Made by a program: the position numbers and the translations under genes. The notes below the pieces were generated by a model. That model ran no database searches. It saw only the letters and a list, made by a program, of their open reading frames with translations, and was not told the origin of the DNA. DNA of 6,902 nucleotides from a virus (taxonomy: Duplodnaviria > Heunggongvirae > Uroviricota > Caudoviricetes): the IMG/VR virus record IMGVR_UViG_2671180849_000001, one strand, 5' to 3'. Positions within the stretch are counted from its first letter, which is position 1, and each line of letters begins with the position of its first letter. Positions 1-6,761 of this stretch are shown here, piece by piece.

Positions 1-419
1 ATGAAATCCCGGGAGGTAAACGGGCATTTCAGTTCAAGGCCGTTGCCGTCACTGCATAAACCATCGGGAGAGCAGGCGGTACGCATACTTTCGTCGCGAT
101 AGATGATCGGTGATTCAGTAACATTCACGCCGGAAGTGAACTCAAACAGGGCTCTGGCGTCGTTCTCGTACTGTTTTCCCCAGGCCAGCGCTTTAGCGTT
201 AACTTCCGGAGCCACACCGGTGCAAACCTCAGCAAGCAGGGTGTGGAAGTAGGACATTTTCATGTCAGGCCACTTTTTTCCGGAGCGGGGTTTTGCTATT
301 ACGTTATGAACTTCTGAAGCTGTGATGACGCCGAGCCGTAATTTGTGCCACGCATCATCCCCCTGTTCGACAGCTCTCACGTCGATCCCGGTACGCTGCA
401 GGATAATGTCCGGTGTCAT
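1..419 (-). CDS. exo: Lambda exonuclease (Red-alpha), N-terminal ~139 codons; the 3' end of the gene lies beyond the window start
   Basis: Reverse complement from the ATG at 419..417 translates [60 protein letters not shown]..., matching lambda Exo as I recall it. The start overlaps the bet stop as ATGA, as in lambda. Confidence 0.9.
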
Positions 420-1201
420 GCTGCCACCTTCTGCTCTGCGGCTTTCTGTTTCAGGAATCCAAGAGCTTTCACTGCTTCGGCCTGTGTCAGTTCTGACGAT
501 GCGCGAATGTCGCGGCGAAATATCTGGGAACAGAGCGGCAATAAGTCGTCATCCCATGTTTTATCCAGGGCGATCAGCAGAGTGTTAATCTCCTGCATGG
601 TTTCATCGTTTACCGGAGTGATGTCGCGTTCCGGCTGGCGTTCTGCAGTGTATGCGGTATTTTCGACAATGCGCTCGGCTTCATCCTTGTCATAGATACC
701 AGCAAATCCGAAGGCCAGGCGGGCACACTGAATCATGGCTTTATGCCGTAACATCCGTTTGGGATGCGACTGCCACGGCCCCGTGATTTCTCTGCCTTCG
801 CGGGTTTTGAATGGTTCGCGGCGGCATTCATCCATCCATTCGGTAACGCAGATCGGATGATTACGGTCCTTGCGGTAAATACGGCATGTGCAGGATTCGT
901 TGTCCTGTTCAAAGTCCATGCCATCAAACTGCTGGTTTTCATTGATGATGCGGGACCAGCCATCAACGCCCACTACCGGAACGATGCCATTCTGCTTATC
1001 AGGAAAGGCGTAAATTTCTTTCGTCCACGGATTAAGGCCGTACTGGTTGGCAACGATCAGTAATGCGATGAACTGCGCATCGCTGGCATCACCTTTAAAT
1101 GCCGTCTGGCGAAGAGTGGTGATCAGTTCCTGTGGGTCGACAGAATCCATGCCGACACGTTCAGCCAGCTTCCCAGCCAGCGTTGCGAGTGCTGTACTCA
1201 T
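416..1201 (-). CDS. bet: Bet (Red-beta) single-strand annealing recombinase, 261 aa
   Basis: ORF-track protein [64 protein letters not shown]... ends ...[11 protein letters not shown]; recognised as lambda Bet over its full length. Position between gam and exo is as in lambda. Confidence 0.95.
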
Positions 1202-1206
1202 CCGTT

Positions 1207-1623
1207 TTATACCTCTGAATCAATATCAACCTGGTGGTGAGCAATGGTTTCAACCATGTACCGGATGTGTTCTGCCATGCGCTCCTGAAACTCAACATCG
1301 TCATCAAACGCACGGGTAATGGCTTTTTTGCTGGCCCCGTGGCGTTGCAAATGATCGATGCATAGCGATTCAAACAGGTGCTGGGGCAGGCCTTTTTCCA
1401 TGTCGTCTGCCAGTTCTGCCTCTTTCTCTTCACGGGCGATCTGCTGGTAGTGACGCGCCCAGCTCTGAGCCTCAAGACGATCCTGAATGTAATAAGCGTT
1501 CATGGCCGAACTCCTGAAATAGCTGTGAAAATATCGCCCGCGAAATGCCGGGCTGATTAGGAAAACAGGAAAGGGGGTTAGTGAATGCTTTTGCTTGATC
1601 TCAGTTTCAGTATTAATATCCAT
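1207..1623 (-). CDS. gam: Gam, RecBCD inhibitor, 138 aa
   Basis: ORF-track protein [79 protein letters not shown]... recognised as lambda Gam. A 5-nt gap separates it from the bet start, as in lambda. Confidence 0.95.
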
Positions 1624-1721
1624 TTTTTATAAGCGTCGACGGCCTCACGAAACATCTTTTCATCGCCAATAAAAGTGGCGATAGTGAATTTAGTCTGGAT
1701 AGCCATAAGTGTTTGATCCAT
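1578..1721 (-). CDS. kil: Kil, host cell-division (FtsZ) inhibitor, 47 aa; canonical copy
   Basis: ATG at 1721..1719 gives [47 protein letters not shown]. It overlaps the gam start by 46 nt, the lambda arrangement. It is the C-terminal 47 aa of track ORF 1578..1826. Confidence 0.8.
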
Positions 1722-1810
1722 TTTTTGGGACTCCTGGCTGATTAAGTATGTCGATAAGGCGTTTCCATCCGTCACGTAATTTACGGGTGATTCGTTCAAG
1801 TAAAGATTCA
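1608..1810. repeat. Tandem direct repeat, unit 1 of 2 (period 203 bp); this copy carries lambda-type sequence
   Basis: Plus-strand cagtattaatatccattttttataagcgtcgacggcctcacgaaacatcttttcatcgccaataaaagtggc... at 1608 recurs at 1811. Identity runs 1608..1809 versus 1811..2012 with five substitutions, all between about 1681 and 1721. Confidence 0.9.
1690..1810 (-). pseudogene. cIII: 5'-truncated second copy of cIII (codons ~15-54, no start codon) left by the duplication
   Basis: Sequence from the junction down to the canonical cIII stop (plus-strand TTA at 1690..1692) encodes ...[37 protein letters not shown] in the cIII frame, but nothing in that frame initiates it. Confidence 0.6.
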
Positions 1811-1924
1811 CAGTATTAATATCCATTTTTTATAAGCGTCGACGGCCTCACGAAACATCTTTTCATCGCCAATAAAAGTGGCAATAGTGAATTTTGTCTG
1901 GATAGCCATAAGTTTTTTATCCAT
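1808..1924 (-). CDS. kil: Second kil allele in the duplicated unit, 38 aa (MDKKLMAIQ...KKWILIL), ending at a TGA created at the duplication junction
   Basis: ATG at 1924..1922, which is the canonical kil start shifted by 203 bp. Relative to copy 1 it has Q3K and T4K and lacks the last 9 residues. It is part of track ORF 1808..2050. Expression is not known. Confidence 0.45.
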   Translation of the reverse strand: MDKKLMAIQTKFTIATFIGDEKMFREAVDAYKKWILIL

Positions 1925-2013
1925 TTTTGGGGACTCCTGGCTGATTAAGTATGTCGATAAGGCGTTTCCATCCGTCACGTAATTTACGGGTGATTCGTTC
2001 AAGTAAAGATTCG
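1811..2013. repeat. Tandem direct repeat, unit 2 of 2; variant copy
   Basis: Same 203-bp unit directly abutting unit 1. It differs from unit 1 by five substitutions (on the plus strand: g>a, a>t, g>t, g>t, t>g) and no indels. Confidence 0.9.
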
Positions 2014-2057
2014 GAAGGGCAGCCAGCAACAGGCCACCCTGCAATGGCATATTGCAT
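1917..2057 (-). CDS. cIII: CIII (inhibitor of FtsH-mediated CII degradation), 46 aa; stops 8 codons early relative to the 54-aa lambda CIII
   Basis: Reverse complement from the ATG at 2057..2055 reads [46 protein letters not shown] then TAA (plus-strand TTA at 1917..1919). AAGGAG Shine-Dalgarno (plus-strand ctcctt at 2064..2069). The stop arises from a tca>taa substitution within the variant repeat copy. Confidence 0.75.
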   Translation of the reverse strand: MQYAIAGWPVAGCPSESLLERITRKLRDGWKRLIDILNQPGVPKNG

Positions 2058-2129
2058 GGTGTGCTCCTTATTTATACATAACGAAAAACGCCTCGAGTGA
2101 AGCGTAATTGGTATGCGGTAACGCCGCGC

Positions 2130-2498
2130 TCAGGCGGCTTTGATAGTCATATCATCTGGATCAAATATTCCTGATGTATCGATATCGGTAATTCTTATTC
2201 CTTCGCTACCATCCATTGGAGGCCATCCTTCCTGACCATTTCCATCATTCCAGTCGAACTCACACACAACACCATATGCATTTAAGTCGCTTGAAATTGC
2301 TATAAGCAGAGCATGTTGCGCCAGCATGATTAATACAGCATTTAATACAGAGCCGTGTTTATTGAGTCGGTATTCAGAGTCTGACCAGAAATTATTAATC
2401 TGGTGAAGTTTTTCCTCTGTCATTACGTCATGGTCGATTTCAATTTCCATTGATGCTTTCCAGTCGTAATCAATGATGTATTTTTTGATGTTTGACAT
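2130..2498 (-). CDS. ea10: Ea10 (lambda Ssb-like early protein), 122 aa
   Basis: ORF-track protein MSNIKKYIIDYDWKASMEIEIDHDVMTEEKLHQINNFWSDSEYRLNKHGSVLNAVLIMLAQHALL... recognised as lambda Ea10. Its offset from gam equals the lambda offset plus 203 bp. Confidence 0.9.
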   Translation of the reverse strand: MSNIKKYIIDYDWKASMEIEIDHDVMTEEKLHQINNFWSDSEYRLNKHGSVLNAVLIMLAQHALLIAISSDLNAYGVVCEFDWNDGNGQEGWPPMDGSEGIRITDIDTSGIFDPDDMTIKAA

Positions 2499-2518
2499 CT
2501 ATTCATATCCTCATAGAT

Positions 2519-2544
2519 AAAAAATCGCCCTCACACTGGAGGGC
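2519..2544 (-). terminator. Rho-independent terminator candidate on the leftward transcript, about 20 nt upstream of ea10 (a tL2-like position)
   Basis: Minus strand reads GCCCTC-cagtgt-GAGGGC (6-bp GC stem, 6-nt loop) followed by gaTTTTTTaT. In lambda, N-modified transcription reads through such sites. Confidence 0.5.
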
Positions 2545-2680
2545 AAAGAAGATTTCCAATAATCAGAACAAGTCGGCTCCTGTTTAGTTACGAGCGACAT
2601 TGCTCCGTGTATTCACTCGTTGGAATGAATACACAGTGCAGTGTTTATTCTGTTATTTATGCCAAAAATAAAGGTCACTA

Positions 2681-2881
2681 TCAGGCAGCTTTGTTGTTCT
2701 GTTTACCAAGTTCTCTGGCAATCATTGCCGTCGTTCGTATTGCCCATTTATCGACATATTTCCCATCTTCCATTACAGGAAACATTTCTTCAGGCTTAAC
2801 CATGCATTCCGATTGCAGCTTGCATCCATTGCATCGCTTGAATTGTCCACACCATTGATTTTTATCAATAGTCGTAGTCAT
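2681..2881 (-). CDS. ral: Ral, restriction alleviation protein, 66 aa
   Basis: ORF-track protein MTTTIDKNQWCGQFKRCNGCKLQSECMVKPEEMFPVMEDGKYVDKWAIRTTAMIARELGKQNNKAA recognised as lambda Ral. Confidence 0.9.
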   Translation of the reverse strand: MTTTIDKNQWCGQFKRCNGCKLQSECMVKPEEMFPVMEDGKYVDKWAIRTTAMIARELGKQNNKAA

Positions 2882-2951
2882 ACGGATAGTCTTGGTATTG
2901 TTCCATCACATCCTGAGGATGCTCTTCGAACTCTTCAAATTCTTCTTCCAT
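2865..2951 (-). CDS. Small acidic ORF (28 aa, MEEEFEEFEEHPQDVMEQYQDYPYDYDY) overlapping the ral start; same position and size as lambda orf28
   Basis: ATG at 2951..2949 preceded by GAGGTG; TGA at 2867..2865. Length and overlap with ral match lambda orf28. It is too short to appear in the ORF track. Confidence 0.55.
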   Translation of the reverse strand: MEEEFEEFEEHPQDVMEQYQDYPYDYDY

Positions 2952-3155
2952 ATATCACCTCAAATAAGTTGTTTGCTGCGAAAGTAAATACGCTTAAGTT
3001 ACCTGTTATTTATCCCACCAAGTTCCGTATCTATCTATCTATCCAGTTACACCAATCATCGACACTCCATTTTGTTGTGTCGCATTTTTGCAACTGGCAT
3101 GAATATCTACCTTCTTTGTAAAGTCGGCGTTTGACTTTCTTGAGCATGGCTCACC

Positions 3156-3497
3156 TCAATCGTAATAAGCTGGAATTGATTTTCCGCGTTGCTTCTGGCG
3201 GCCTGAGCAAGTCACACCCATTTCACTGCGTGGCTTGCGGTAGTAAATACGGTTCTGTTTACGCTCGACTTCTTCTGCCTTCTGGCAGCGAAGGCTTCCG
3301 AGTGATATTGCTTTTTCAGAAAGGCTTAAACGTTTTCTCGGGGCTTCCTGAACAGGTTCCTCACTGTCTGTGCCGAAGATCGAATCGATGATGTTGCATA
3401 TAGCATCACGCTCGATAGCCAGCTTTCTGCGCCGCTCATGACGGCGAGTTTTGGCATTTCCTGCAAATGTTGATTTCCCGTACACGATTACCGTCAT
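3156..3497 (-). CDS. N: N-family transcription antiterminator, 113 aa, with a P22 gene-24-type arginine-rich motif
   Basis: Internal ATG at 3497..3495 of track ORF 3156..3581, preceded by GAGGA. Product starts MTVIVYGKSTFAGNAKTRRHERRRKLAIERDAICNIIDSIFG, matching the P22 N ARM peptide GNAKTRRHERRRKLAIER. The C-terminus ...AEEVERKQNRIYYRKPRSEMGVTCSGRQKQRGKSIP resembles lambda/phage-21 N. P22-type boxB lies upstream. Confidence 0.85.
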   Translation of the reverse strand: MTVIVYGKSTFAGNAKTRRHERRRKLAIERDAICNIIDSIFGTDSEEPVQEAPRKRLSLSEKAISLGSLRCQKAEEVERKQNRIYYRKPRSEMGVTCSGRQKQRGKSIPAYYD

Positions 3498-3616
3498 GAT
3501 GTTTTCCTCATGTGAAATGGCTTTGGGGGTGATGTGCCAGATGCTGATCTTCTGGTTGCTGTCGTTGCAGCTGCAATTCACATCACCGCCAAATCCATCT
3601 CGTTTGGTATCTGTTT

Positions 3617-3910: not shown

Positions 3911-3942
3911 AAGAAAACCCGGCGCAGAGGCCGGGTTTTTCT
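3911..3942. terminator. Bidirectional rho-independent terminator immediately downstream of the accessory cassette
   Basis: Plus strand reads aagAAAA-CCCGGC-gcagag-GCCGGG-TTTTTct: a 6-bp GC stem flanked by an A-run on one side and a T-run on the other, so it is terminator-like on both strands. It abuts the stop codon (3941..3943) of the 258-aa gene. Confidence 0.7.
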
Positions 3943-4717
3943 AGGCTACCAGAGAGTCAATCCAAGAGTCTCTGGTATGGAATGGCAACACTCGTGCGGT
4001 ATCATTAAATAGTAGTGATAGTTGCTGTAGCTCAGGTGTTAACCCATCGCTGTCAACTATTACAAATCTATTGTTTATGTCAGGAACGACCTGACTTAAG
4101 TCAACAATCTTCCCAACTGTTGAGTGGGCAGTATTCCATCCTTTACTGCTGGCAAGGCTTACCGTAAACCCGCGTTTTGGTGGTATTAGTCGAGACTCAT
4201 TCCTTAGCGTTAACGGAACAGTAATGTTATGCCCACTAATACCTTTCACTTTTTCCTTTAAGGCTAGTCGCTTCCCAAGCCCTGCTGATTTTAAGTAACT
4301 GATTACACATTTTTCGAACTTATCGTCTTTGACCTCAGCATACCAATCAGCAGTTTGGGCGGATGCAAGAATCCCACCACGAATAACATTTGCAGTTACC
4401 TGTCCAACGGACGACTCATCTGCCCACGCAGATATCTCTCCAGAGTCATTTAATGAAATTCCTTGCGAAGCGAGTGATGACCTGATCAGATCAATTTTCT
4501 TTTTAGTCAGGTGGATGCCGCGTGATTCAATATTCATCAATGTATCGCAGTAGTCTGTAACCCTATACTGACCACTCATCTCTTGAACGAATACGCTTAT
4601 CTGCTCACAATCATCGTAGTATGTGAAGGGACTAATAACGCGCAGCAACGTGTCGCTCATTGGGTGGCATTCAAACCCGAGCTTAGATATGACTGTTGAA
4701 CACGTTACATTTCCCAT
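3941..4717 (-). CDS. Hypothetical protein, 258 aa, no family recognised; downstream gene of the two-gene cassette at the rexAB-equivalent locus
   Basis: Track ORF MGNVTCSTVISKLGFECHPMSDTLLRVISPFTYYDDCEQ.... The ATG at 4717 overlaps the upstream gene by 13 nt (coupled arrangement). An alternative start is the ATG at 4660 (MSDTLL...), which has no clear Shine-Dalgarno. No long hydrophobic segment, no Walker motif. Confidence 0.7.
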   Translation of the reverse strand: MGNVTCSTVISKLGFECHPMSDTLLRVISPFTYYDDCEQISVFVQEMSGQYRVTDYCDTLMNIESRGIHLTKKKIDLIRSSLASQGISLNDSGEISAWADESSVGQVTANVIRGGILASAQTADWYAEVKDDKFEKCVISYLKSAGLGKRLALKEKVKGISGHNITVPLTLRNESRLIPPKRGFTVSLASSKGWNTAHSTVGKIVDLSQVVPDINNRFVIVDSDGLTPELQQLSLLFNDTARVLPFHTRDSWIDSLVA

Positions 4718-5247
4718 GATAGCTGACCTGATTTATCTTGATTCGGTAAAGGTGGGCTGCCTTCATATATGATATTAAGCGCCTCGCAAAAATAATTCCA
4801 GTAGCCAAAAAAATCATCTGGCTTGATGTTCGTTTCAAGCTTGAGTGCAATTTCTTCCCCAGCTGATTCGAAGTACATGTGATAGTGAGGACCTCGAGCC
4901 ACCTCAACAAAATCTGGATGGTGCACTATAGATTTATTACGGTGTGACTTGTTATGCGCAGGGTACGGGTCAAGCGCGTAAATGCGCCTGTCATGAAGAA
5001 ACATCACAAATGAAAGCTTCACTATATCCACCCCTTCAACGATAGGAGAACGCCAGTGAAGCATAAATCTTATGCCTGTGATTGGGTTGCCAATTTCATC
5101 AAAAGCTTTGAGATCCAATTTAAACCAGATTGGGGTTCGTCCCTCACTTCCGGTCCACGAAACTCCGCTAAAAGTTACTTTTTTCAAGCGAGTAATAGCT
5201 TGGTCAACCTCTTTCTGGGTAGGCTTAAAGTCGCCTTTTTTAGCCAC
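4705..5247 (-). CDS. Hypothetical protein, 180 aa, no family recognised; His-rich central segment; upstream gene of the cassette
   Basis: Track ORF; the first codon is GTG (plus-strand cac at 5245..5247), preceded by GGTGAT 9 nt upstream. Product MAKKGDFKPTQKEVDQAITRLKK... contains FLHDRRIYALDPYPAHNKSHRNKSIVHHPDFVEVARGPHYHMYFE. Same strand as cI, directly downstream of it. Confidence 0.7.
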   Translation of the reverse strand: MAKKGDFKPTQKEVDQAITRLKKVTFSGVSWTGSEGRTPIWFKLDLKAFDEIGNPITGIRFMLHWRSPIVEGVDIVKLSFVMFLHDRRIYALDPYPAHNKSHRNKSIVHHPDFVEVARGPHYHMYFESAGEEIALKLETNIKPDDFFGYWNYFCEALNIIYEGSPPLPNQDKSGQLSWEM

Positions 5248-5344
5248 TGATTCGTATCACCATGAAAGTTATTGTTAATACCTATGCTTCTTGTCACCCA
5301 AACGTCTCTTCAGGCCATTGGTTACCAGCTATGTGACGATGAAG

Positions 5345-6052
5345 TCACGAACTTTTAATCCATTCCCTTGCCTCGATGTCATCTAGGTGGCGAGATTGCT
5401 TCAAAATACCAGCCACATACTCCACCTTTGCTACTTGATGATAAGGCAACGTTATTGGCCTGTGGTCTTGATTGATGCTTGTAAATTGGTATTCTCCGTC
5501 TCTGTCATAGCCAAGAACCTTGATCATGTTGTGCCCTTCAATGGTTCTGACAAACACTTCATCACCTGGGAATACTTTGGTGTTAGGCTCAATGAGTACA
5601 TATTCTCCTGATTTAATTCTGGGCCACATGCTGTCTCCTTTTACACGAAGACCAAAGGCATCTGGATCATCGCTATAAATCTTGAGCCACCCATCGCGCT
5701 CTTCGGTCATCTCGATGGCACCATCAACACCAAGAATTGCCTCACCAACCACGCGCACTAACCCTTTTTTTAATTTGCCAACAATTGAAAAAGTATCTTC
5801 ATCATTCGCTCCATTTAACGAAGTGCCGTGCTGAAGCCAAACAACATCAACGTTTAGAAATTTCGCAAGCGCATTCATTTTTTCCTGGCGTGGTAAAGAC
5901 TCAGCATTAAACCATTTGCTAACGCCTTTGGACGAAAGAGAAAGGGCACGGGCTATGGCCATTCCCCTACCATGTTCATCAAGACCAGCTTCTTTACAGG
6001 CTTGCGCTAGCCGCTGGGCGAATTCTTTGCGCACTTTTTCATTCTGAACCAT
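5345..6052 (-). CDS. cI: CI-type prophage repressor, 235 aa: N-terminal HTH domain plus C-terminal LexA/S24-like autocleavage domain; not lambda immunity
   Basis: Track ORF MVQNEKVRKEFAQRLAQACKEAGLDEHGRGMAIARALSLSSKGVSKWF... with C-terminal ...LRVKGDSMWPRIKSGEYVLIEPNTKVFPGDEVFV..., the S24-type Ser-containing motif. Divergent from cro across an operator region. Confidence 0.9.
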   Translation of the reverse strand: MVQNEKVRKEFAQRLAQACKEAGLDEHGRGMAIARALSLSSKGVSKWFNAESLPRQEKMNALAKFLNVDVVWLQHGTSLNGANDEDTFSIVGKLKKGLVRVVGEAILGVDGAIEMTEERDGWLKIYSDDPDAFGLRVKGDSMWPRIKSGEYVLIEPNTKVFPGDEVFVRTIEGHNMIKVLGYDRDGEYQFTSINQDHRPITLPYHQVAKVEYVAGILKQSRHLDDIEAREWIKSS

Positions 6053-6464: not shown

Positions 6465-6761
6465 ATGACACAAACAAGTTACAGCAAACTATCACAGCGC
6501 GACGTTGATCGCGCAGAAACAGATTTACTCATCAACCTGTCAACGCTTACCCAGCGCGGTCTGGCAAAGATGATTGGCTGTCATGAATCGAAGATAAGCA
6601 GAACAGACTGGAGGTTTATTGCTTCGGTCTTGTGTGCTTTCGGAATGGCATCAGACATCAGTCCGATTAGTAGGGCTTTTAAGTATGCGCTTGATGAAAT
6701 CACAAAGAAAAAACGCCCGGCGGCAACCGAGCGTTCTGAACAAATCCAGATGGAATTCTGA
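6465..6761 (+). CDS. cII: CII transcriptional activator (lysogeny establishment), 98 aa; C-terminus lambda-identical, N-terminal/HTH part divergent
   Basis: Track ORF MTQTSYSKLSQRDVDRAETDLLINLSTLTQRGLAKMIGCHESKISRTDW...; the tail ...KKRPAATERSEQIQMEF matches lambda CII as I recall it. A 32-nt gap to O, as in lambda. Confidence 0.85.
   Translation: MTQTSYSKLSQRDVDRAETDLLINLSTLTQRGLAKMIGCHESKISRTDWRFIASVLCAFGMASDISPISRAFKYALDEITKKKRPAATERSEQIQMEF

Follow-up and report, generated by a model that had tools for sequence, protein, structure and literature searches.

What does a pair of small genes, the stop codon of the first overlapping the start codon of the second, contribute to a prophage when the pair lies directly behind the repressor gene? 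This question is raised by a 6,902-nucleotide stretch of a Caudoviricetes virus (IMG/VR virus record IMGVR_UViG_2671180849_000001), which we refer to as the window and in which gene A, encoding a protein of 180 amino acids (aa), is followed on the minus strand by its partner, gene B. An initial annotation, made from the letters of the window, had pointed to a histidine-rich segment in the center of protein A and had likened it to the metal-dependent phosphohydrolase or nuclease sites of abortive-infection effectors. Our answer, that this is a defense-type cassette in the slot of the lambda rex genes and that protein A has a real functional site other than an HD domain, is one to which we give, taken whole, an even chance.

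Genes A and B in the place of rexA-rexB

The open reading frames (ORFs) of the window, together with their Pfam domains and RefSeq names, identify its content as the early-left and immunity region of a lambdoid prophage. The identification of the slot turns on the following features.

5345..6052, minus strand: CI-type prophage repressor, upstream of gene A on the same strand (Pfam Peptidase_S24 at 3.5e-16 and HTH_3 at 1.2e-5; S24 family peptidase in RefSeq)
5294..5335, minus strand: relic of a lambda-type cI 3' end, in frame after the resident cI stop and ending in IAGNQWPEETFG before a stop codon (in lambda, IASQWPEETFG before the stop)
4705..5247, minus strand: gene A, 180 aa, GTG start, a putative divergent relative of DUF6978 / PDC-M24A (phrog_2017 at 9e-73)
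3941..4717, minus strand: gene B, 258 aa, the partner of A, with an N-terminal DUF1828 domain and a C-terminal restriction-endonuclease-like fold
3911..3935, minus strand: intrinsic terminator closing the cassette (CCCGGC-loop-GCCGGG, then TTTTCTT), a homologue of lambda tIMM downstream of rexB

The spacer between the cI stop and gene A is 97 nt long. The relic within it can be aligned with lambda and with one of the related loci (L014), the cI 3' ends of H-19B and many Stx phages match this stretch at 98% identity, and the remainder of the spacer after the relic aligns with the lambda cI-rexA spacer. The relic has the look of a scar, left when recombination at the 3' end of cI exchanged one immunity region for another. 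On the far side of gene B, the terminator is near-identical to lambda tIMM and homology ends there; it is kept in 15/15 aligned loci, beyond which the sequences diverge. No terminator-like site was found on the minus strand between cI and A. Because the pair is flanked by lambda's cI 3' end, its cI-rexA spacer, and tIMM, A-B is an allelic replacement of rexA-rexB, and we regard the identification of the genes, the operon, and the slot as close to certain. The proteins themselves show no similarity to RexA or RexB (BLASTP E 0.28 to 11).

The same arrangement recurs behind many different repressors. The same-strand gene upstream of A encodes a helix-turn-helix (HTH) plus S24 repressor for 35 of the 39 distinct upstream proteins, and, compared with the first of them, these reach only 10-65% identity; because the upstream repressors are so divergent, we conclude that the cassette travels behind many immunity alleles. 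The repressor-A-B order is also found in phage ev207, and the full cassette is present in 61 of 5,426 complete E. coli genomes (~1%) as well as in many other Enterobacterales. At one locus (L083), the CI-type repressor gene and A are separated by a 110-aa ORF without a family match.

In lambda, transcription of the rex genes starts at PRM, together with that of cI, and RexA biases the bistable lysis-lysogeny switch independently of RexB (PMC11077077). A-B might likewise tune the switch of its own prophage and have no role against other phages, since it lies in the exact rexAB slot, under the cI promoter, and RexA offers the precedent. Against this stand the lack of similarity to RexA and RexB, the fact that the PDC-M24 family, to which we relate the pair below, was collected within BREX, DISARM, and restriction-modification loci, and the location of some distant copies on contigs with no called CI-type repressor gene. 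Moreover, a cassette found with at least 39 distinct upstream proteins, of which 35 are CI-type repressors, is not what one would expect if it made specific contacts with one CI/Cro pair. We consider a pure switch-tuning role very unlikely.

A conserved non-ATG start and a coupled pair

We compared gene A with its counterparts in 78 related loci, which were retrieved with an alignment of 20 A sequences down to 37% identity (alignment A2) and which come from E. coli, phage ev207, Pantoea, Thorsellia, Providencia, and 72 IMG/VR contigs. A wider alignment (A3) extends down to 21% identity. Relatives are few: when 1.84 billion cluster representatives were searched exhaustively with a profile, only 22 matched at E <= 0.001. 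A 1,089-aa protein (P0059), in which a 19-residue stretch was matched twelve times, was judged a repeat artefact.

Gene A starts with GTG at 5247-5245 on the minus strand, preceded by the following element.

5261-5257, minus strand: Shine-Dalgarno-like site GGTGA, 9 nt before the GTG, containing an in-frame TGA

This TGA lies four codons upstream of the GTG, and since it falls within GGTGA itself, no upstream in-frame start is possible. RefSeq holds the identical ORF with the identical start (WP_024167659.1, hypothetical protein). An AGGA/GGTGA element is kept at the same position in the boundary alignment of related loci, and in loci L001-L078 the Shine-Dalgarno-like element lies 9-12 nt before the start. 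The start codon is GTG in 75/78 loci, TTG in 2/78, and ATG in 1/78, so a non-ATG start is a trait of the whole A family. Every aligned full-length relative begins with MA(K/S)(K/S), mostly MAKK. The ratio of nonsynonymous to synonymous substitution rates (dN/dS) is 0.05-0.09 over the full length of the gene and 0.05-0.12 within codons 2-61. Because those first codons are so constrained, the internal ATG at M62 is not the start; the initial annotation had named an internal start as one way in which its reading could fail. Its GTG start is confirmed by the RefSeq start, the conserved N-terminus, and the dN/dS of codons 2-61, and its ribosome-binding site and lack of an upstream in-frame ATG by the sequence. 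Gene A truly encodes a protein, and the purifying selection on it is strong from codon 2 on.

Gene B follows A directly in 78/78 related loci, and it is also the next gene in 6/6 cases among distant A homologues (22-28% identity), where the overlaps are 1-4 nt. The A/B overlap is 13 nt in the window and a 4-nt ATGA in other clades, and a stop/start overlap is usual across loci; A and B form an obligate, translationally coupled pair. Together with this coupling, the non-ATG start and the Shine-Dalgarno spacing suggest selection for low, fixed-ratio expression. Whenever the two proteins of a pair were compared, A showed the lower conservation (36-42% versus 46-52% for B, 86% versus 91%, and 96% versus 100%).

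One copy has decayed. In locus L052 (IMG/VR contig 2548876529_000017, 2588-3893), gene A is reduced to 114 aa after a frameshift at the HPDFV codons, and B is matched over residues 38-258 only. Because this copy decayed, the cassette can evidently be lost without the prophage region going with it.

The neighbors of distant A-B copies include a TacAT toxin-antitoxin pair, a resolvase, and another CI repressor. In locus L086 (ENA ERZ27309107 k141_303943, 1409-3580), a TacA antitoxin / GNAT-toxin pair is followed directly, on the same strand, by a distant A-B pair.

If the cassette stabilized the prophage or a mobile element, as a toxin-antitoxin or addiction module, it would be expected to look much like this: two short genes whose stop and start codons overlap, a weak and conserved non-ATG start on the first of them, and mobile contexts that include a neighboring TacA/GNAT toxin pair and a resolvase. 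The tail of A, discussed below, might even be a protease degron, like the CII tails that share its pattern. However, A and B resemble no toxin or antitoxin family in Pfam, NCBIfam, or PADLOC, and the L052 cassette decayed without an obvious compensating change. The idea also overlaps with the explanation that we favor, an anti-phage module, because many such systems are anti-phage as well. As a separate explanation, we find it improbable.

Relation to the candidate defense pair PDC-M24

In PHROGs, A and B both belong to families of unknown function. The Pfam family DUF6978 (PF22398) is the assignment precomputed for three close A homologues, and it matches 10 of the 20 A-family members, at best with 2e-6. 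For the A of the window, the match reaches 21.1 bits against a cut-off of 29.6 (E 4e-4) and covers residues 100-159 only; we take this protein to be a probable remote relative of DUF6978, not a formal member. In PADLOC, A matches PDC-M24A only and B matches PDC-M24B only, in that gene order and on one strand. PDC-M24B is matched by 13/13 B-family members, the distant ones over their full length and at best with 7e-22, and the B of the window matches it at 6e-7 over its first ~100 residues only. The best PDC-M24A match in the A family is 4e-6, and that of the window's own A is a weak 1.5e-3. Across the A family, the part that matches PDC-M24A / DUF6978 is the C-terminal half with HxN, GxHxH, W150, and F153. 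By these profile matches, the cassette would be a divergent member of the DUF6978 + DUF1828 candidate pair PDC-M24.

PDC-M24 was described as a two-gene cassette (FAM_00129>>FAM_00065) with 153 instances (Payne et al., bioRxiv 10.1101/2024.01.29.577857). Such systems were chosen by "guilt by embedding" in BREX, DISARM, type I restriction-modification, or Hma loci, and the authors describe their 145 PDC systems as untested candidates (bioRxiv 10.1101/2024.01.29.577857). In our literature search, PDC-M24, both RefSeq accessions, and both PHROG ids went unmentioned, and DUF6978 and DUF1828 appeared only in passing in gene lists.

The defense or abortive-infection setting that the initial annotation had proposed fits both the rexAB slot and the PDC-M24 relation; the hydrolase effector that it placed in this setting is unsupported. 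A role of the cassette in excluding other phages seems to us slightly better than an even bet.

A conserved site in protein A that is not an HD domain

Protein A has eight histidines (H64, H85, H98, H102, H109, H110, H121, and H123; 4.4% of its residues), and all eight lie within a 60-residue span (P ~0.002 under random placement). The histidine-rich central segment of the initial annotation is thus real, and the five peptide strings quoted for it are all present in A. The histidines are far from equally conserved, however. H85, D86, H98, and H109 vary freely among close relatives and in both alignments: position 85 is H, Y, Q, or K and position 86 is D or N among close relatives, and neither aligns with a conserved column of the wider family. 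H64 is kept in the close clade only, and H110 is invariant in A2 and lost in distant members. The HD dipeptide and the HH pair, which had been put forward as diagnostic, consequently fail as such, H110 alone of their histidines being kept in A2.

A different set of residues is conserved. The invariant columns of A2 are W31, R37, W41, R88, D93, H102, N104, H110, D112, G119, H121, Y122, and H123. Those of A3 are W31, R88, D93, N104, H121, H123, F153, and P168, with H102, G119, W150, and Q175 conserved to at least 90%. The family signature reads R-[IV]-x-x-x-D ... H-x-N-[KR] ... G-x-H-x-H, and its center lies in the following segment.

4879..4986, minus strand: conserved polar core of A, codons R88 to H123 (R88, D93, H102, N104, H110, D112, G119, H121, and H123; predicted local distance difference test score, pLDDT, 80-96)

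In these alignments, the invariant R88, D93, N104, H121, and H123, with the near-invariant H102, point to a real functional site in A. The idea that the histidines mark such a site therefore survives for a subset, conserved as functional-site residues are, and this subset excludes the residues of the HD and HH motifs. That the six residues R88, D93, H102, N104, H121, and H123 form a catalytic or metal-binding site is plausible from their conservation, and we put it a little short of even.

An AlphaFold2 model of A, built from the 20-sequence alignment, has a pLDDT of 86 and a predicted template modeling score (pTM) of 0.83. It shows ten beta strands and two helices, with residues 172-180 disordered. 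No match to this fold was found at E <= 0.001 among viral predicted structures (Foldseek), and none among solved structures. The family profiles of A and B found nothing among PDB sequences at E <= 10, and no transmembrane segment was found in either protein (maximum 19-residue Kyte-Doolittle hydropathy 1.22 for A and 0.79 for B). If the model is right, A is a small, soluble, beta-rich protein and not an HD domain.

These results bear directly on the proposal that A belongs to the metal-dependent phosphohydrolases or nucleases of the HD-domain or a similar known type, with the HD and HH residues as its active site and abortive infection as its effect. The eight histidines in residues 64-123 (P ~0.002), several of them invariant, and a context like that of a defense cassette speak in its favor. 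On the other hand, H85, D86, and H109 vary even in close relatives, and no HD or other hydrolase family matched A in Pfam (E <= 1), NCBIfam, or PADLOC, nor did a hydrolase among PDB sequences. The check that the initial annotation had suggested, structure prediction, gave a beta-rich model and not an all-helical one, and because an HD domain is helical, we reject this reading. A known hydrolase fold of this kind is extremely improbable.

Other enzyme motifs that A superficially recalls were also set aside. Residues 121-156 form a beta-beta-alpha unit as in His-Me finger / HNH nucleases, but the histidines lie at the start of the first strand and not at its end, and no family profile backs the likeness, which we treat as speculative. 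A HEPN Rx4-6H motif (R103...H109/H110) was ruled out by the variability of R103 and H109, and resemblances to the PLD HKD motif and the kinase HRD...DFG motif were ruled out by wrong spacing.

Protein B and the division of labor in the pair

Residues ~15-125 of B form the DUF1828 domain, with a type III secretion chaperone / YbjN-like fold, and residues ~130-258 have a restriction-endonuclease-like fold in which the alpha/beta core is present. Folds of the DUF1828 class usually belong to peptide-binding chaperones. In the endonuclease-like domain, no conserved lysine of a D...(D/E)xK motif was found, K181 being present in 9/13 members. The residues that are conserved there are S161, G162, H163 (11/13), D206, and an acidic residue at 222, and a variant active site is possible. 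Within the DUF1828 domain, C6, C17, D36, D55, and G93-E94 are invariant down to 23% identity, which hints at a second conserved site in the cassette.

In another division of labor, A would be an adaptor or regulator without enzymatic activity (its conserved histidines serving as a structural zinc site or a binding surface) and would be anchored by its tail to B or a host protein, and B, with its restriction-endonuclease-like domain, would be the effector. H102, H110, H121, and H123 are invariant in the enterobacterial clade, as a zinc site would be, with H110 lost in distant members. The N-terminal domain of B resembles type III secretion chaperones, a fold class that binds extended peptides, and A evolves faster than B, as expected of a component that contacts phage proteins. 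What speaks against it is that B, as the supposed effector, has no conserved (D/E)xK lysine (K181 in 9/13 and H163 in 11/13 members), and that five invariant polar residues in A (R88, D93, N104, H121, and H123) at 21-28% identity exceed what a simple zinc site needs. We regard an adaptor role for A as possible, if on balance doubtful.

A conserved peptide at the C-terminus of protein A

A second conserved element of A lies outside its folded part.

4708..4731, minus strand: C-terminal tail SGQLSWEM of A, codons S173 to M180; predicted disordered, conserved, with the last four codons overlapping the start of gene B

Residues 172-180 have a pLDDT below 50. Despite this, S173, G174, and Q175 are invariant in A2, and Q175, conserved to at least 90% in A3, persists at 21% identity. 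One explanation would be that the tail is conserved merely as a by-product of the ribosome-binding site of gene B. This was ruled out: the distance from SGQ to the B start depends on the clade (8 versus ~15 nt), the distance from SGQ to the C-terminus of A is fixed, and the three codons vary synonymously (TCA/TCG/TCT, GGT/GGG/GGA/GGC, and CAG/CAA). In codons 165-176, each of two pairwise comparisons (with loci L026 and L044) shows three synonymous and zero nonsynonymous changes. Because the SGQ-to-B-start distance differs among clades, we place the constraint on the A tail at the protein level.

The tails, all ending at the last residue of the protein, come as six-residue peptides (QLSWEM, QMGFGI, and QIGLPL) and five-residue peptides (QLRLL, QMSLL, QIPLL, QMLLL, and QIQLL), and they share the pattern S-G-Q-[LMI]-x-[LFW]-(x)-[LMI] at the extreme C-terminus. 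Bacterial clamp-binding motifs are likewise penta- or hexapeptides, among them QL[S/D]LF, QLVLGL at the C-terminus of Pol IV, and QLSLPL, a strong variant (PMC3716654, PMC3664792). The QLSWEM of A (residues 175-180) appears to fit the penta-/hexapeptide consensus for binding the beta clamp, and we propose the tail peptide NQDKSGQLSWEM as a candidate beta-clamp ligand. Of 878 distinct C-termini from the fetched loci (ORFs of 100 aa or more), 25 show the clamp-type pattern, and 22 of these 25 are A proteins.

Degradation is the other use to which such a tail could be put, as in lambda CII, whose C-terminal tail acts as an FtsH degradation signal. The three remaining C-termini with the pattern resemble the lambda CII tail. 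By its likeness to CII tails, the tail of A could be a degron instead. Two further points also weigh against docking on the clamp: the motif is short and degenerate, with G or T at position 2 in some distant A members (QGRLL and QTSLL), and the resemblance was spotted post hoc.

The CII-like protein encoded in the window (6465-6761, plus strand) itself ends in QIQMEF, as does lambda CII, and so fits both the A-tail pattern and the clamp consensus. A published study traced effects on the toxicity of CII and on the loss of ColE1 plasmids to the last five to six residues of the lambda protein, the Gln and the Met among them (PMC5869508).

From its pattern of conservation, we interpret the tail of A as a probable docking or degradation signal. 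The DUF1828 domain of B and a protease are live alternatives as its target, and we rank the clamp first. The specific proposal that the tail docks on the host beta clamp, so that A-B would act on replicating DNA, is tentative, and we consider it unlikely rather than likely. No description of a clamp-binding defense system was found in our literature search.

Proposed mechanism and significance

The mechanism that we favor would run as follows. In lysogens, the cassette would be transcribed with cI from PRM, like rexAB, and A-B would act against other phages, as an exclusion or abortive-infection module encoded by the prophage. The working site of A would comprise R88, D93, N104, H121, H123, and H102, joined by H110 and D112 in the enterobacterial clade, and would most likely be a metal- or phosphate-binding catalytic center. 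The flexible C-terminal peptide would be a docking motif, with the beta sliding clamp as the first choice, and would bring A-B to replicating DNA. B would contribute a sensor-like domain and a DNA-handling domain of the restriction-endonuclease-like kind. In its most specific form, the proposal makes A an enzyme or sensor of new fold, with a His/Asp/Asn/Arg center and tethered to the clamp by its C-terminal peptide, and has A-B guard or attack clamp-loaded replicating DNA. This form is speculative, and we think it probably wrong in at least some part.

Several observations weigh against this mechanism. The low scores of the window's A against DUF6978 and PDC-M24A count here, as does the candidate status of the PDC systems. 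RexA also tunes the lysis-lysogeny switch, and the slot alone is therefore no proof of a defense role. The fold of A matches no enzyme among solved and viral predicted structures, and B lacks the conserved lysine, so that no component of the cassette has a recognizable catalytic motif. Finally, the conserved histidines of A could instead have a structural role in holding zinc, or could belong to a surface that binds a ligand or a protein.

The position of rexAB is the classic site of lysogen-expressed exclusion genes in lambdoid prophages, and here a different two-gene cassette has been swapped in via lambda's own flanks. An orphan pair of prophage genes is thereby tied to PDC-M24, and that candidate gains a tractable E. 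coli / lambda model. A vague remark about histidine richness gives way to a list of residues (R88, D93, H102, N104, H121, and H123), and the tail yields a new and specific hypothesis, binding of the C-terminal peptide of A to the beta clamp. If that hypothesis is true, the cassette would be the first prophage defense module known to dock onto the host replication clamp, and there would be a hint that the lambda CII tail (QIQMEF) acts likewise in the known replication inhibition by CII. If the cassette is not anti-phage, it would be an ordinary accessory operon of the prophage.

Remaining features of the window

Beyond the cassette, the minus strand continues with the following genes, and the plus strand of the window carries the Cro-like and CII-like genes.

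3156-3581, minus strand: N antiterminator, next along the strand after gene B
After N, minus strand: ral-like gene, DUF2528 gene, then the cIII/kil region
1207-1623, minus strand: gam
416-1201, minus strand: bet

A 203-bp tandem duplication lies at 1608-2012, in the gam / kil / cIII region (2.0 copies, 97% identical), and gives rise to two near-identical ORFs of ~80 aa (1578-1826 and 1808-2050). In the closest E. coli genomes, the whole window is matched at 99.8%, in two pieces. Because this match spans ~6,695 bases against the 6,902 of the window, we conclude that these genomes are without the second copy of the duplication.

Comparison with known systems

The closest comparison is with lambda RexAB. 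A-B lies in the same slot, between cI and tIMM and co-oriented with cI, and by analogy the expression of a two-gene operon from PRM in lysogens would be expected of it too. The proteins differ: RexA and RexB have 279 and 144 aa and A and B have 180 and 258 aa, so that the sizes are reversed. RexB has four membrane segments (PMC11077077), whereas A and B have zero, and RexA has an RdgC-like fold (PMC11077077), whereas the model of A matches no solved structure.

PDC-M24 has the same gene order as A-B, a DUF6978-type gene followed by a DUF1828-type gene on one strand. Its loci lie inside BREX or restriction-modification regions, whereas A-B lies in the immunity region of a lambdoid prophage, and the A-B branch, with 22 representatives among 1.84 billion clusters, is tiny.

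Two groups of nucleases and hydrolases invite comparison with the individual proteins. HD-domain phosphohydrolases (PF01966) have an invariant His-Asp doublet in an H...HD...D motif, are all-alpha-helical, and are recognized by a family profile; A has no conserved doublet, a beta-rich model, and no profile match. Effectors of the PD-(D/E)xK type (Can2/Card1, NucC, and McrC) carry a D...(D/E)xK signature that is not kept in B, and those of the Can2/Card1 type have a CARF domain at the N-terminus, where B has a type III secretion chaperone / YbjN-like one.

With the clamp binders Pol II, Pol IV, UmuC, and the epsilon subunit, the likeness of A is one of sequence pattern alone, a pattern that CII-like tails fit too, and A has no known DNA-metabolism domain. 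Like them, A ends in Q-[LMI]-x-[LFW]-[LMI] or Q-[LMI]-x-[LFW]-x-[LMI]. In Pol IV, the motif (QLVLGL) ends at the last residue of the protein, and the same is true of A, where it follows a proline-rich linker that is predicted to be disordered.

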